This document shows positions 5,209 to 18,681 of a stretch of 64,000 bases of DNA, one piece after another. The DNA is from a virus. The stretch spans positions 32,001 through 96,000 of the IMG/VR virus record IMGVR_UViG_3300021420_000001, one strand, 5' to 3'. A program made the translations under genes and the position numbers. Below the pieces are notes generated by a model. The model did not search any database and was not told the DNA's origin. It worked only from the letters and a program-made list of their open reading frames with translations. The first letter of the stretch is position 1, and the number at the start of each line of letters is the position of its first letter.

Positions 5209-6969
5209 TTACTGGACCTCGATAGAAGCCATGTTGATCTGCTGTACCGAGCCGCCGTCAGCATACCATAGAGAAATGGGGGGAGACCCCCTTGCAGCCC
5301 GGACGGCTGGTGATGCTGGGAGAACCTGTAGATACCAGCCCTGGTTGCTGACTGTGCCAGCAACGTTCGCACCAGCCGCCGTATTGATGGCGATGACCTC
5401 GGTCGAGGAAAGGATGACCCCGACCCGGATTGCACCAAAGTTGAGAGCCTGCTGAATTGGGGTGGCAAGCGCCTGTTCGATCAAGGCGTTTCCTGCGGCA
5501 TTGTACGGGATCGAGTTGATCGTGCCCAAGAGATTCATCAAGGCCAACTGGAACTGTGAGTTCATCCAGATCTGATTGACGTAGCTGTCCAACCACAGGA
5601 ACGGTCCCGAAATCGATCCAGGATAGGCGAAGACGAAACCAGCGTTGGCTGTCGCGTAGGCACCATAGAAGTTGTAGCCATTCGCGATCAGATTGGAGGC
5701 AATGGTCTGGTTCGTGACCGTTGCCGTCAGGCCACTGTAGGTGTCGAAGGCGATAGTCGCCCGACCATTGGTCTGGTTGAAATTGAGCTGTGCGATCGAA
5801 CCAGAGACCGCCGCGACCAGGAATTCATTGTTCGGGTCGTACCAGACCGAGGTTCCGGTATAGTTACTGCCGTTGACGCCGACCAGATAACCGAGAGAGG
5901 TCGTAGCCGGAACCGTCGAGGTCGGGCTTGCATCATTATCCCAGGCCAAGTAGGCGTAGCGATTATTCTGGCCGTTAGTCCAGGCCGCAAAGGCGAGTTT
6001 GTTGGTGTTACTACCCGTATTGATGGATCCGACAAGATCCGGATTGAAGGCCGTGAAGAACGTAGCCCAATTCGTCGTGACTTGTATGAGTCCGTTCATG
6101 AAGGCGGCGGGCGTCGTAGCTGCTGCGCCCTGAGACAAGACCGCCCCTGTGACCTGCGTCAATAGCAAGTTGGTAGCAAGAGCCCCAGAACCGAACGTGA
6201 TAGTTGACCCACTCCCGGACGTAGCCGAAACTATCGTAAAGGCTCCGGATACGGAGTCGTAGATGACCCCTGGCGCAAACGCGGTCATACTCGCAGAGAT
6301 TGCGAGCTGTGAGGCGCTAACCTGATAGGTTCCGGTACCGCCAGCTGAACCAGAAAGTTGTGAGATGATATAGGTACCGAGTGTGACGCCCGTACCCTGG
6401 ACAACGTCACCGACGCCGATCGTACCAGAGGAAAGGGATGAAATTGTAAGAGTTGTCCCTGGAGTAAATGCTCCGGTACCGCCGATCGAACCCGTAAAGG
6501 TTGCAGCCTGCGCTCCCTGGATCAGAAGTCCGTTGGCAATAATCTGCGCCGCATTGGAGAAGCTGGTCGCAGCGGCTAGGCTGATCGAAGCCGTCTTGAC
6601 TGATCCATCGATCGAAAGGCCAAGCGTGCCACTATAGCCTTGTAAGGTACCGAGCGTGATCGCCGAGATATTGCCGCCACGTAGATAAGCCGAAGCCGCA
6701 TTGAGAGGGCATTGTGCCATCAACAATGCCGCCGGAACCTGGGTGGCGTTTGCATTACCACTGAAGTAAGCGTTAGCAAGCGCGGTCTTAGCAGCATCTC
6801 CCGCCCCAAAGAAACTGATGACTGCCGCCGCTGACGGGAAGGACTGAACCGTGCCAATTGGAATGCGCGTGCTTTCGGTCAGCGCCAGCCCAATCAGGTT
6901 AAGGCCTGATCCGCCCGCACTGATGACGCTCGGAGTTACCGCAACAATAGCTGAGGCCGGGATTGTCAT
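5209..6969 (-). CDS. Tail sheath protein (DUF3383-like) with an inserted Ser/Thr/Gly-rich beta domain
   Basis: 586 aa; TIPASAIVAVTPSVISAGG, NWATF, GYNFYGAYATAN, WLDSYVNQIW, WYADGGSVQQI motifs. Confidence 0.9.
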   Translation of the reverse strand: MTIPASAIVAVTPSVISAGGSGLNLIGLALTESTRIPIGTVQSFPSAAAVISFFGAGDAAKTALANAYFSGNANATQVPAALLMAQCPLNAASAYLRGGNISAITLGTLQGYSGTLGLSIDGSVKTASISLAAATSFSNAAQIIANGLLIQGAQAATFTGSIGGTGAFTPGTTLTISSLSSGTIGVGDVVQGTGVTLGTYIISQLSGSAGGTGTYQVSASQLAISASMTAFAPGVIYDSVSGAFTIVSATSGSGSTITFGSGALATNLLLTQVTGAVLSQGAAATTPAAFMNGLIQVTTNWATFFTAFNPDLVGSINTGSNTNKLAFAAWTNGQNNRYAYLAWDNDASPTSTVPATTSLGYLVGVNGSNYTGTSVWYDPNNEFLVAAVSGSIAQLNFNQTNGRATIAFDTYSGLTATVTNQTIASNLIANGYNFYGAYATANAGFVFAYPGSISGPFLWLDSYVNQIWMNSQFQLALMNLLGTINSIPYNAAGNALIEQALATPIQQALNFGAIRVGVILSSTEVIAINTAAGANVAGTVSNQGWYLQVLPASPAVRAARGSPPISLWYADGGSVQQINMASIEVQ

Positions 6970-6995: not shown

Positions 6996-7703
6996 TCATA
7001 TAACCTCTACGAGATTCAGGGCGAGAATGGATGCGAATTGCTGGCTCACAGAAATGTACTGGTTGGCCTGGAGACAGGCCTCAACGATCCAGCGATCTTC
7101 CATCGCCTCTTGGTCATTTATGAAAACCATCTGTTTGGGATCGTCAGCATACAAAGGCGCAACATCAAAACCAGAACTGATGAACTGATTTACTCCGTAC
7201 TCGTCGCGTAGCGAAGTCGAGATGACTACTGAATTATCCGCCGATGAGGGGCCATGTACATCCAGCTGGATTTTCCACTCGGTAGGCTGAAGCAACGCCT
7301 TCAATCCAGCAGCCATCAATTGACTAGACACAGTCTGTGAATTCGAGATCGAATAAGTCCCTGGACCACCAGACCCAGAAATGAACGCTGTTATCGTCAA
7401 CGAGCCCGTAGCAAGCCCCGTACCGAAGACCTGAGCACCAATTGCGATGGTCCCAGAGGCGACCGAACTCACGGTCATTACAGTTCCGGCTATCGAAGCC
7501 GTAAAGACTGTATCAGTATAGGTATCGACATTGGTCTCAAGACGCGTCTGGCTCAGCGGGGTCATCATCACGAAATCAGAGCCGACAGGCTCAGGAACGC
7601 GATTGACCTGAGACTTATAGATCCCAACTCCTGGCGGGAGAACAGCGGTCAGAAAGTTACCCAGGGCCGCAAAGACGTTGGCCTGATTAGGAGTAGGTAT
7701 CAA
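6996..7703 (-). CDS. Tail completion/terminator (neck) protein with inserted S/T/G-rich domain
   Basis: 235 aa; QVNRVPEP, IQLDVHGP, PLYADDPKQM, EDRW motifs; precedes the sheath gene. Confidence 0.8.
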   Translation of the reverse strand: MIPTPNQANVFAALGNFLTAVLPPGVGIYKSQVNRVPEPVGSDFVMMTPLSQTRLETNVDTYTDTVFTASIAGTVMTVSSVASGTIAIGAQVFGTGLATGSLTITAFISGSGGPGTYSISNSQTVSSQLMAAGLKALLQPTEWKIQLDVHGPSSADNSVVISTSLRDEYGVNQFISSGFDVAPLYADDPKQMVFINDQEAMEDRWIVEACLQANQYISVSQQFASILALNLVEVI

Positions 7704-7888: not shown

Positions 7889-7912
7889 GGAGACCTCAAA
7901 GGCTTTGTAAAT

Positions 7913-8004
7913 TGGTGCTTCCGGAACGGATTCGAACCGCCCTACAACGCTTTATCCGGTTCTGTCACGGACCAAGGCGTCGATCATCCAATGAGTTCGG
8001 AAGC
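7913..8004 (-). ncRNA. tRNA-like RNA with atypical elongated anticodon arm
   Basis: Minus strand GCTTCCG...GGGCGGTTCGAATCCGTTC-CGGAAGC-A-CCA: perfect 7-bp acceptor stem, TTCGAAT T-loop, encoded CCA, minimal D hairpin TCAT/ATGA. Intergenic. Confidence 0.7.
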
Positions 8005-8005
8005 G

Positions 8006-8422
8006 TTAGTAGGTCTGAGCCTGGAGCGCGGCTAGTAGCGCAGGAGATGAGCTATCGTTCTGTAAGACCAGAACCGCCTTTACCCAGTCAGGCCATTGTT
8101 CAGGGACAGCCGTGACGAGCCAGACCGTACCATCAGGGAGAACGATGACATCGCCGCCCTTGAGGGTGACTCGCTGGCCGGCGCTGATGACACCGTTGGT
8201 ATAAAGCGTACGGAGCGTGCCATTCAGATTGAGACCCTCGACCTGATGGAGGTCCTTGATCGAAAGCTCTTGCACCTGACCTTGAACTACGACCGGGGAA
8301 GCGTACTGCGGGGAACGGGAATAGTCAGCGTTGGTGATGCTTCCGGTACTAGAACGGACAATGATCGGGATTGGAGGGTTGACTGTTCCAACCATGCCCT
8401 GGACTAGTCCGTGCATGTTCAT
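8006..8422 (-). CDS. Head closure / head-tail adaptor protein
   Basis: 138 aa; MNMHGLVQGMVGTVNP...GQVQELS...KGGDVI...WLVTAVPEQWPDWVK. Confidence 0.8.
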   Translation of the reverse strand: MNMHGLVQGMVGTVNPPIPIIVRSSTGSITNADYSRSPQYASPVVVQGQVQELSIKDLHQVEGLNLNGTLRTLYTNGVISAGQRVTLKGGDVIVLPDGTVWLVTAVPEQWPDWVKAVLVLQNDSSSPALLAALQAQTY

Positions 8423-8817
8423 TGGATAGCCGAAACGATCCCAAGCCTACGACATTCTTCCAAGGCTGCGTCAGCAGGGCCATTTATCCAAGATAGTTCT
8501 TGTTGCTCCTTAGTCATTCCTTCAGGTGGATTCATATGGGCAACAGCTTCACAGATAGGGCAATATTCTGTCCCATCCGGTTTCGCGCCCATAAGGTAGA
8601 GGCCTCCCATTTTCAATGCTTGACTAGTAATCATCCAATGACAAGACATTAATGGATCATAATCCGGAGTACCGCCTTTTAATTCAGTTACTGCATCAGT
8701 GATGGCTTCTTCACCACTCTTTGCCCCCAAATGGGATAGACCACGATTCTTAATTGCAGTCCGTAATTTATCCCAATGAGGTTGACATATACGCATTCGT
8801 CTATCTTTCTGATACAT
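8419..8817 (-). CDS. Hypothetical protein
   Basis: 132 aa with CQPH and CPIC; overlaps neighbours in operon style. Confidence 0.6.
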   Translation of the reverse strand: MYQKDRRMRICQPHWDKLRTAIKNRGLSHLGAKSGEEAITDAVTELKGGTPDYDPLMSCHWMITSQALKMGGLYLMGAKPDGTEYCPICEAVAHMNPPEGMTKEQQELSWINGPADAALEECRRLGIVSAIQ

Positions 8818-8995
8818 AACCCTCAGTACAGAACGCGACCGTTACCTTTGGTGTTCGGAACCCAGCATCGATCGGGGAGTCAGGCAGGATCGTACCAATG
8901 AAACTCTTGGCATCGGTCAGACAAGTCATCCGGTCAATACGGGGTTCCGCAACGATTGTCAGGTCCGAGTAGATCAGGACCAGGATGAAGGTCAT
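8801..8995 (-). CDS. Small hypothetical protein
   Basis: 64 aa, operon orientation. Confidence 0.5.
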   Translation of the reverse strand: MTFILVLIYSDLTIVAEPRIDRMTCLTDAKSFIGTILPDSPIDAGFRTPKVTVAFCTEGYVSER

Positions 8996-9234
8996 ACCAA
9001 CTCTGGGTTCAACATTTTCTCGAAGATCGTGATACTGGTCTTACGTTCGACAATTGGACGGAAGCGCCAATTCTGCCAAGCACGTCCAGACCCATCAATA
9101 TCAATACAACCAATTCCGTTTGTCAATGAATGCACCACGTAAATACGATTTTTGACCAGAGGATAGGTGCAATGCCATTTGTTCGCAGGCAGACTAGCAT
9201 CAACACAAACAACTTTCTGTCCAACATGGAACAT
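8992..9234 (-). CDS. Small hypothetical protein (VGQKVVCV family)
   Basis: 80 aa; shares its N-terminus with 44000..44245. Confidence 0.65.
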   Translation of the reverse strand: MFHVGQKVVCVDASLPANKWHCTYPLVKNRIYVVHSLTNGIGCIDIDGSGRAWQNWRFRPIVERKTSITIFEKMLNPELV

Positions 9235-17749: not shown

Positions 17750-18681
17750 GCCTCTATCGGTCTATTCATACCATCCAAAATACCGATCTGCTGGAGTGCC
17801 TTACCCACACAGTTTTCAGGAGAGAGCTTTTCCATGAACGCTTTCATCTGCGCAGCATGGACACCCTTCCAGGCCGTACGGGTAAGTATACACTGATCGT
17901 AAAAGCTTTCGATCGATGGCGCAAACCGTACGATCTCATCCCAAGGCTTACTGAGGAAGTGAGGTTCGGCGACAACTGGACGACCAAGACAAAGTGCGGT
18001 ATTGCAACGCGAAGAACTGACAAGCCCCATCTCCTCGAACTTCCTGATCTGTACGATGACCTTGGCCTGACGCATAATCCGATCGCGTTCGGTCTGATCC
18101 TTGAAGTCGGCGATGATACGTACACCCTTCTCGGAAAGATTAGCACGACGGGCGAGCATCTTCAATATCTTCAGGCGGCGCTTGGTCAACGACCCGTAGA
18201 AGCCGAAGTCATACGTCGGGGCGAAGTCTCCAGTACGCACGAGGGAAGGTGCGTAACCGAGTTCACAAGGTGCGGCAGGACAGAACTGACCATACCACTT
18301 GGTAACATGATCACCGGGAACGAGATGGATAATGCCCTCGGCATATTTGGCGGCTTCCGGGAAGGTCTTCTGGCGAAAGACCATCTCCTTTTGGGTACCT
18401 TGATTGAAACCCTTCTCGGAAGGTTCCTCAGTCGCCAGGATGATGAAGCGTGCGCCAGATTCATAGCCGTGCGCTAGAAGCTTTATGGCGTCGGGGGTGA
18501 AGCCTTCCACCACTATGTTCATGCCCTGACCTGCCAGGGTATTCAGGAACATGTGATTACGTTGATCCCAAACTATTTCGTGACCTAGAGCCCTGCAAGC
18601 ATGTCCGAAAATACCAACGACGTCTTCAAGTGATCGCTGCCCTAAATCACTGTGGTTGGCCATATTTACGAGGAAGTTCAA
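17725..18681 (-). CDS. Putative GT-B glycosyltransferase
   Basis: YDFGFYGSLTKRRLKIL, ERDRIMRQAKVIVQI, SSSRCNTAL..PVVAE resemble the C-domain of CgeB-like GTs. Confidence 0.7.
   Translation of the reverse strand: MNFLVNMANHSDLGQRSLEDVVGIFGHACRALGHEIVWDQRNHMFLNTLAGQGMNIVVEGFTPDAIKLLAHGYESGARFIILATEEPSEKGFNQGTQKEMVFRQKTFPEAAKYAEGIIHLVPGDHVTKWYGQFCPAAPCELGYAPSLVRTGDFAPTYDFGFYGSLTKRRLKILKMLARRANLSEKGVRIIADFKDQTERDRIMRQAKVIVQIRKFEEMGLVSSSRCNTALCLGRPVVAEPHFLSKPWDEIVRFAPSIESFYDQCILTRTAWKGVHAAQMKAFMEKLSPENCVGKALQQIGILDGMNRPIEAWKQKAVA

Follow-up and report, generated by a model that had tools for sequence, protein, structure and literature searches.

A putative family of tRNA-derived non-coding RNAs with an extended arm in phage structural operons

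Introduction

What is a tRNA-shaped sequence without an anticodon loop doing between two genes of a phage in which no ordinary tRNA gene is found? The question is raised by a 92-nt element in IMG/VR virus record IMGVR_UViG_3300021420_000001, a complete record of 111,480 bp with direct terminal repeats, of which bases 32001–96000 (64,000 nt, referred to below as the window) were analysed. The element lies on the minus strand, which is also the strand of the surrounding genes, and occupies most of a 117-nt intergenic gap. A preliminary description had taken it for a tRNA mimic of some kind, and the features listed there (acceptor stem, discriminator A, CCA, T-arm, D-arm and an over-long arm in place of the anticodon arm) are all present on the minus strand from 8004 to 7913. 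From the comparisons reported here, the element is a real, selected and uncatalogued tRNA-derived non-coding RNA; it belongs to a family, and its extended arm is unusual.

The usual interpretation of phage tRNA genes is that they serve codon supply, and what the tRNA finders reject stays unannotated. Here, a phage without an ordinary tRNA keeps a tRNA body under strong selection with the codon-reading arm swapped for a conserved hairpin, and the locus is a tangible example of how a structured and conserved RNA can escape present-day annotation.

Conservation of the element in a close relative

The closest relative retrieved is a single 28.8-kb metagenome contig (L059; as found in IMG/VR, L143), in which a neighbouring protein shares 78% identity. 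The element occupies the corresponding gap of this contig, 2 nt past a stop codon and 19 nt ahead of the ATG of the gene for a 62-aa protein. The two copies differ at 17 of 92 positions, 14 of them in stems. None of the 27 pairs is lost from either copy, and there are six double compensatory and two one-sided changes, the latter by way of G·U pairs. Three of the double compensatory changes are in the outer stem of the long arm (CGGUUU/AAGCUG in the relative), which contains one one-sided change as well; two are in the inner helix (CACG/CGUG), where they account for two of the four pairs, and one is in the T stem (GUGCGG/CCGCAC), again together with a one-sided change. Control alignments with the partner strand slid out of register gave 31–50% pairing and 0–1 compensatory pairs, and 14 random stem substitutions left every pair intact in 0 of 200,000 simulated trials (P<5e-6). 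The preliminary description had regarded a lack of conserved pairing among relatives as the mark of a decayed tRNA or an attachment-site remnant; the six double compensatory changes point the other way. Since a G·U pair, such as those of the outer stem and of the T stem, would turn into a C-A mismatch in a transcript of the opposite strand, the RNA is assigned to the gene strand.

The unpaired positions are identical at 35 of 38, including the whole of CUUGG on the 5' side of the internal loop and the whole of the apical loop UGACAGAAC, and substitutions are rarer at unpaired positions than in stems (Fisher p=0.03). By comparison, third codon positions of the flanking genes are 47–59% identical, and the spacer that follows the element, 24 nt long in the window and 19 nt in L059, has 37% identity. 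The T-loop G57 is replaced by A in the relative (UUCAAAU), so that a purine is retained. Similarity starts at G+1 and ends after C75, the tails being ACCA in the window and ACCC in L059, and on this alignment the limits of conservation coincide exactly with tRNA-type ends. Within the long arm the stems have changed at 12 of 20 positions while 17 of 18 bases of the internal and apical loops are identical, which argues for a sequence-specific use of the arm: a middle section that is invariant on both strands and is flanked by freely covarying helices bears the mark of a site recognised by its sequence, unlike a spacer. By these measures purifying selection acts on the fold and on the sequences of the loops alike.

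Secondary structure of the element

Read from 8004 to 7913, the element is GCUUCCG AAC UCAU UGG AUGA U CGACGC CUUGG UCCG UGACAGAAC CGGA UAAA GCGUUG UA GGGCGG UUCGAAU CCGUUC CGGAAGC A CCA. The position of the anticodon arm is taken by a 38-nt arm, in which a 6-bp stem encloses 26 nt with a further helix and a 9-nt loop, and the variable region is only 2–3 nt long. The sixth G-C pair of the T stem is optional; if it is not formed, one C is left unpaired at the junction of T stem and acceptor stem. In the modelled fold the internal loop is probably mostly paired, with two U-A pairs, a G·U pair and one bulged G, and in the minimum-energy fold of the L059 element the A-to-G change on the 3' side of this loop adds a C-G pair, leading to a nearly continuous 14-bp helix under the 9-nt loop. 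The apical 9-mer UGACAGAAC occurs once in the genome. The positions of all parts are compiled in Table 1.

Table 1. Positions of the element, of its parts and of neighbouring genes (window coordinates unless a contig is named).
Feature	Position	Strand	Remarks
tRNA-shaped RNA element, whole	7913..8004	-	92 nt; G+1 at 8004, ...ACCA end at 7913; homologue L059:2921-3011
Acceptor stem, 5' strand GCUUCCG	7998..8004	-	seven Watson-Crick pairs with 7917-7923; invariant between window and L059
Linker AAC and mini D-arm UCAU-UGG-AUGA	7984..7997	-	4-bp stem/3-nt loop or 3 bp/5-nt loop; GG kept; A at position 8
Long arm, outer stem, 5' strand CGACGC	7977..7982	-	six pairs with GCGUUG 7945-7950
CUUGG, internal loop, 5' side	7972..7976	-	invariant (identical in L059)
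Inner helix, 5' strand UCCG	7968..7971	-	pairs with CGGA 7955-7958
Apical 9-nt loop UGACAGAAC	7959..7967	-	invariant, 9/9 identical in L059
UAAA, internal loop, 3' side	7951..7954	-	UAAG in L059
T-arm GGGCGG/UUCGAAU/CCGUUC	7924..7942	-	five canonical pairs and a possible sixth G-C; canonical T-loop U54 U55 C56 R57 A58
Acceptor 3' strand CGGAAGC, discriminator A, CCA	7913..7923	-	
Distant family member	L223:6037-6111	-	
Upstream gene, 138 aa	8006..8422	-	virion 'head protein' family phrog_1912
Spacer	7889..7912	-	24 nt, unconserved; GAGG at 7894-7897 ahead of the next gene's ATG
Downstream gene, 62 aa	7700..7888	-	acidic, no Pfam/PHROG family
Neck/tail terminator gene	6996..7703	-	PF23961
Tail sheath gene	5209-6969		after the terminator gene

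Performance of annotation tools

With default settings ARAGORN calls no tRNA anywhere in the genome, the window included, and its tmRNA search is negative as well. No Rfam family passes its gathering threshold, and relaxing the cut-off to E<=10 brings up no tRNA match, with either 551 nt or 108 nt as the query. The checks by tRNA finder and by Rfam that the preliminary description had proposed thus end with both default ARAGORN and the Rfam tRNA model missing the element. At relaxed thresholds ARAGORN does draw a cloverleaf, with a 19-nt 'intron' and an ambiguous anticodon (UGA, UGG or UUA). The same cloverleaf is predicted by RNAalifold, unguided, from the alignment of the two sequences, and the single-sequence fold is modestly better than that of shuffled sequences (z=-2.1). 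A custom scan was made for sites that combine a TTCRA T-arm with both a 7-bp acceptor stem and an NCC tail; exactly this one site was found in the 111-kb genome, as against 0.05 per Markov-randomised genome.

A 111-kb phage without a canonical tRNA by default ARAGORN is unusual at such a size, and the element is its sole tRNA-related gene.

A second lineage and the search for others

A 15-mer from the D-arm led to a distant member on an 8.6-kb viral contig (L223) that has no detectable protein in common with the phage studied here. Outside the arm its body is identical at 51 of 59 positions, with the same AAC-UCAU-UGG-AUGA-U, UAG, T-arm and extra C, and the sequence of the mini D-arm is identical in all three members. 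The acceptor stem of the L223 element contains a compensatory change of U3-A70 to G3-C70. Its tail is UCCA, so that N-C-C is common to the three members and A76 is not. The arm is short, with either 6 bp and a 6-nt loop or 5 bp and the 8-nt loop GUCCCAUC; an 8-nt anticodon loop is the architecture of the classical +1 frameshift-suppressor tRNAs. With U73 and G1-C2-G3, this element resembles a derivative of tRNA-Gly(CCC), and the database sequences that it matches best are tRNA-Gly genes of phages. Default ARAGORN and the Rfam tRNA model fail to detect this element as well.

The L223 element follows a gene for a P22-type major capsid protein and a terminator-like hairpin, and precedes a small gene and a head-tail adaptor-like gene. 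Because the same body is found here with a different, short arm, the body is regarded as the common module and the arm as lineage-specific, and the picture that these contigs give is of a tRNA-derived family whose members lie within late operons of structural genes in unrelated phages and join an unvarying body to an arm particular to each lineage. A module of RNA and protein formed with the downstream gene was ruled out, the proteins downstream of the window and L223 elements being unrelated.

Further members were sought among 57 viral-contig relatives, reached by way of the 138-aa and sheath proteins, and 80 metagenome-contig relatives by means of ARAGORN, blastn-short and covariance model R1; only L059 has the element. 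In a blastn search of the region and the element against 50,697 phage records no homologue was found, the matches being short ones to the T-arm, and pattern scans of viral and genome contigs returned only L143 and L223, all other matches being chance ones or ordinary tRNAs. The literature searched contains no description of this RNA family.

Other odd tRNA shapes were met in the same searches. On two viral contigs (L257:7694-7772 and L258:2499-2577, plus strand) there is another unannotated tRNA-shaped element, which has the mini D-hairpin CAUUGGAUG, a canonical T-arm (GUUGG UUCGAAU CCAAC) and about 36 nt replacing the anticodon and variable arms, and which is called by ARAGORN at relaxed thresholds only. 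At the end of a Rhizobacter metagenome-assembled genome contig (L277:7474-7546), a poor-scoring call of tRNA-Ala(CGC) contains the same UCAU-UGG-AUGA mini D-arm, and may be a phage-derived odd tRNA.

Comparison with known tRNA-like RNAs

The kind of molecule is already known, namely a tRNA-like RNA that does not decode, and what appears to be new is an uncatalogued family with an extended arm. The element shares with canonical tRNA (RF00005) the 7-bp acceptor stem, the discriminator followed by CC(A), the UUCRAAU T-loop with its closing pair G53-C61, the GG in the D-loop, and a place within an operon such as some tRNA genes have. It differs from canonical tRNA in having a 38-nt arm instead of a 5-bp stem and 7-nt anticodon loop, a D-loop of 3–5 nt (canonical 7–11), A8 instead of U8, a variable region of 2–3 nt, and an extra C or sixth pair at the T-stem/acceptor junction. 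The tRNA-like domain of tmRNA is similar in its acceptor stem and T-arm, its reduced D region and the long helix at the position of the anticodon arm. The element was rejected as a tmRNA on the grounds that it has no G3:U70 (3-70 is U-A), no tag reading frame and no pseudoknots, that it is only 92 nt long, and that the ARAGORN tmRNA search is negative. YrlA and other bacterial Y RNAs were likewise rejected, the ends of the element lying at the acceptor stem and Rfam giving no match.

The likeness to tRNA-Pyl and other compact-core tRNAs lies in the 6-bp 'anticodon' stem (counting the 26-44 pair), the very short variable region and the very small D-loop. On the other hand, tRNA-Pyl lacks G18-G19 and the T-loop consensus, both of which are kept here, and the element has neither a CUA anticodon nor an anticodon loop. 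Plant mitochondrial t-elements, MALAT1 mascRNA, C4 RNA (P1/P7) and CI RNA (P4) are comparable as non-decoding tRNA-like folds with expected excision by host tRNA-processing enzymes, whereas no similarity to them is found in sequence or by Rfam covariance models. C4 and CI act, once released, via exposed loops; for the loops of the present element no complementary target was found. The closest architectural counterpart is man-made: the engineered tRNA scaffold (Ponchon and Dardel; PMC3753655) has an identical architecture, with the anticodon stem-loop replaced by a hairpin, while the present element is natural, phage-encoded and selected.

Proposed role and alternatives

The tRNA parts that have been retained are exactly those that host tRNA enzymes read, namely the acceptor/T stack, the elbow of T-loop and GG, and N73-C74-C75. 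What RNase P binds is the stack formed by T stem-loop and acceptor stem, with the elbow as the origin of its measurement and the anticodon arm left unread (PMC4919913). Engineered tRNA scaffolds, which retain acceptor stem, T-arm and D-arm and have a hairpin instead of the anticodon stem-loop, are recognised by E. coli factors, precisely processed and stable (PMC3753655). For these reasons we tentatively favour the reading, possible though short of probable, that the element is a natural non-decoding 'tRNA scaffold' that is cut from the late operon transcript by host tRNA enzymes and carries a conserved hairpin. The element would be co-transcribed with the late head-neck-tail genes, and is probably part of the operon transcript, because no promoter-like or terminator-like site was found adjoining it. 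Host RNase P would cleave at G+1, one nucleotide past the upstream stop codon, and host 3'-processing enzymes would trim the other end to ACC(A). A stable RNA of about 92 nt would be released, and its excision would also part the message upstream of the element from that downstream. The conserved irregular hairpin of about 14 bp would be the working part, a specific binding site for a putative protein or RNA partner. If the RNA is excised and stable, phages evolved the 'tRNA scaffold' trick before RNA biochemists did, and if the reading is true the family would be a natural compact chassis for the delivery of small RNA modules in Proteobacteria. Identifying what binds the invariant loop could reveal a new level of control over late genes or the host.

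Several points weigh against this proposal. The covariation evidence comes from one close pair and one distant member, and the D stem, the acceptor stem (in the close pair) and the sixth T-stem pair are invariant and hence lack covariation support. The acceptor/T stack is perhaps 13 bp long and not 12, position 8 is A and not U, and the D-loop is tiny; because of these departures, recognition by RNase P and other tRNA enzymes is plausible but not guaranteed. A search of the genome for the 9-mer complement of the apical loop returned only the opposite strand of the element itself, and the enrichment of complements of the loops in gene leaders is weak and not significant, whether as 6-mers (13 vs 8.0 +/- 3.2) or as 7-mers (4 vs 1.4 +/- 1.2). 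The single 8-mer sites are either not conserved, as is the one ahead of the TTG start at 18681, which is not conserved in L143, or lie within conserved coding sequence. The element does not appear, detectably, to be an antisense regulator of many phage leaders. Finally, 18% of the words sampled occur in a soil metatranscriptome of another study. Three 151-nt contigs from it, 100% identical to the upstream virion genes (window 8097-8247, 8364-8514 and 8655-8700), match neighbouring coding regions and none matches the element, so that they are uninformative on its expression.

Two further results are recorded here. An 8-nt complement of the apical loop, GUUCUGUC, is found at window 18279-18286 (minus strand) and is conserved at L143:10182-10189, inside a gene for a 318-aa protein of the glycan island; the site codes for the conserved residues Q-F-C-P, and its conservation may come from coding alone. 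An aminoacylated RNA for non-ribosomal use by the neighbouring glycan island was considered and rejected, as no FemAB, Fem-like GNAT or LPG-synthase C domains are present in the glycan island or the rest of the genome.

The alternative that survives best is that the element is pure punctuation, with a body that only recruits RNase P and 3' processing or caps the upstream message, and that the released RNA has no function; such a signal would determine how stable the head part of the late transcript is in comparison with its neck/tail part. The location is well suited to this, between co-oriented genes of an operon, 1–2 nt past a stop codon and about 20 nt ahead of a ribosome-binding site, as is the position of the L223 element directly after a major capsid gene and a terminator-like hairpin, which is typical of differential expression control. 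The arm is wholly different between the two lineages while the body that RNase P would recognise is common to both, and RNase P needs no anticodon arm (PMC4919913). If the arm were a mere spacer, however, it should drift, yet 17 of its 18 loop bases are identical compared with a neutral identity of about 50%. The suggestion in the preliminary description of a processing signal for RNase P and RNase Z fits the anatomy and position of the element, but by itself leaves the invariant arm loops unexplained, and we regard punctuation as the whole function as rather unlikely.

A second alternative is that the element sequesters, as a decoy or sponge, a tRNA-binding host factor, for instance a defence nuclease that cleaves tRNA, a synthetase or a modification enzyme. 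It would present a tRNA body together with an arm that is uncleavable or of high affinity, and would thereby shield the translation of host or phage in the late phase of infection. That phage-encoded tRNAs can counteract defences directed at tRNA is well established, and this phage has no ordinary tRNA with which to replace cleaved host tRNAs. The acceptor stem and D-arm are moreover invariant in sequence between the window and L059 and not just paired, as would be expected of protein identity elements. The arm, on the other hand, is unlike any canonical 7-nt anticodon loop recognised by the known anticodon nucleases, and a location in the late operon would be poor timing against a defence that acts early. 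A decoy function is accordingly thought doubtful.

The third alternative is an interrupted decoding tRNA, in which a 19-nt hairpin in the anticodon loop is removed to give a working tRNA. Cutting out UCCG, the apical loop, CGGA and UA would leave CUUGGAA with the anticodon UGG (Pro), and other registers would give UGA (Ser) or UUA (ochre). The invariant half-loops can indeed rebuild a 7-nt loop with U33 and purine 37, as CUUGGAA in the window and CUUGGAG in L059, and the near-normal tRNA-Gly(CCC)-like arm of L223, together with its matches to phage tRNA-Gly genes, suggests that the family descends from real tRNAs. Against this, as it stands the element has no anticodon loop and is not predicted to be a decoder. 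A conventionally spliced tRNA was rejected, there being no bulge-helix-bulge: the unpaired strands face each other without the staggered 3-nt bulges. A group I intron in the anticodon loop was rejected as well, the insert being 19–21 nt long against about 200 nt or more for such an intron, and no Rfam intron family is matched. No tRNA-splicing endonuclease, RtcB, RNA ligase or CCA-adding enzyme is present in the phage (PF01974, PF01139 and PF09414 are absent), and bacteria are not known to splice inserts of this kind. An invariant 9-nt loop would be needless in an excised intron, and the core departs too far from the Rfam tRNA model to be matched even at E<=10. Usage of proline, glycine and serine codons is flat, with no sign of a codon demand. 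An ochre suppressor, which the preliminary description had raised as a speculation, is disfavoured by the missing splicing features and enzymes and also because TAA is a normal stop codon, ending 42 of 117 genes, among them the gene directly upstream, in frames that are open under the standard code; the letters of the loop fit tRNA-Pro(UGG) at least as well as UUA. An interrupted tRNA in general is therefore very unlikely. In its specific form, a split tRNA-Pro(UGG) from which host nuclease and ligase activities would remove the 19-nt hairpin after transcription, or only under particular conditions, with the 9-nt loop as the excision signal, the idea is highly improbable; if true, it would be the first short non-group-I tRNA intron in a bacterial virus.

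That the element is a tRNA pseudogene in decay, the remnant of an attachment site or a fold arisen by chance, as might be suspected from the rejection of the element by the tRNA finders and Rfam and from the modest single-sequence fold, is given almost no credence because of the selection on fold and sequence seen in the comparison with L059, where the 14 stem substitutions break no pair and include the six double compensatory changes, the unpaired bases are far more conserved than neutral sites, and the same position is kept next to a spacer that has diverged beyond recognition, and because the combination of features is unique in the genome. What stands of the earlier tRNA-mimic reading is thus its general form, a selected fold whose ends match the limits of conservation and which has no 7-nt anticodon loop.

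Genomic context

The relatives of the tail sheath belong to phages of Burkholderia, Xanthomonas, Ralstonia, Pseudomonas and Acinetobacter, all at <=54% identity, and for this reason the host is probably a soil proteobacterium. The first base of the element lies 1 nt past the TAA stop codon of the upstream gene (8006-8008), and about 20 nt separate the element from the next ribosome-binding site. Metagenome relatives of the 138-aa protein exist at 68–90% identity, and a set of 12 closer relatives known from this neighbouring protein spans 64–90%. The 62-aa protein is 92% identical in amino acid sequence to its L059 counterpart, the highest value among the neighbouring genes (52–80% for the others).

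The metatranscriptome contigs described above possibly mean that the same phage was active at another site, and they may alternatively come from DNA carry-over. The gene content upstream of the element differs between the two close relatives: between the radical-SAM gene and the gene for the 138-aa protein, the window contains three small genes (80, 64 and 132 aa) at 8419-9234, and the counterpart region of L059 (2310-2504) contains a single 64-aa gene only.

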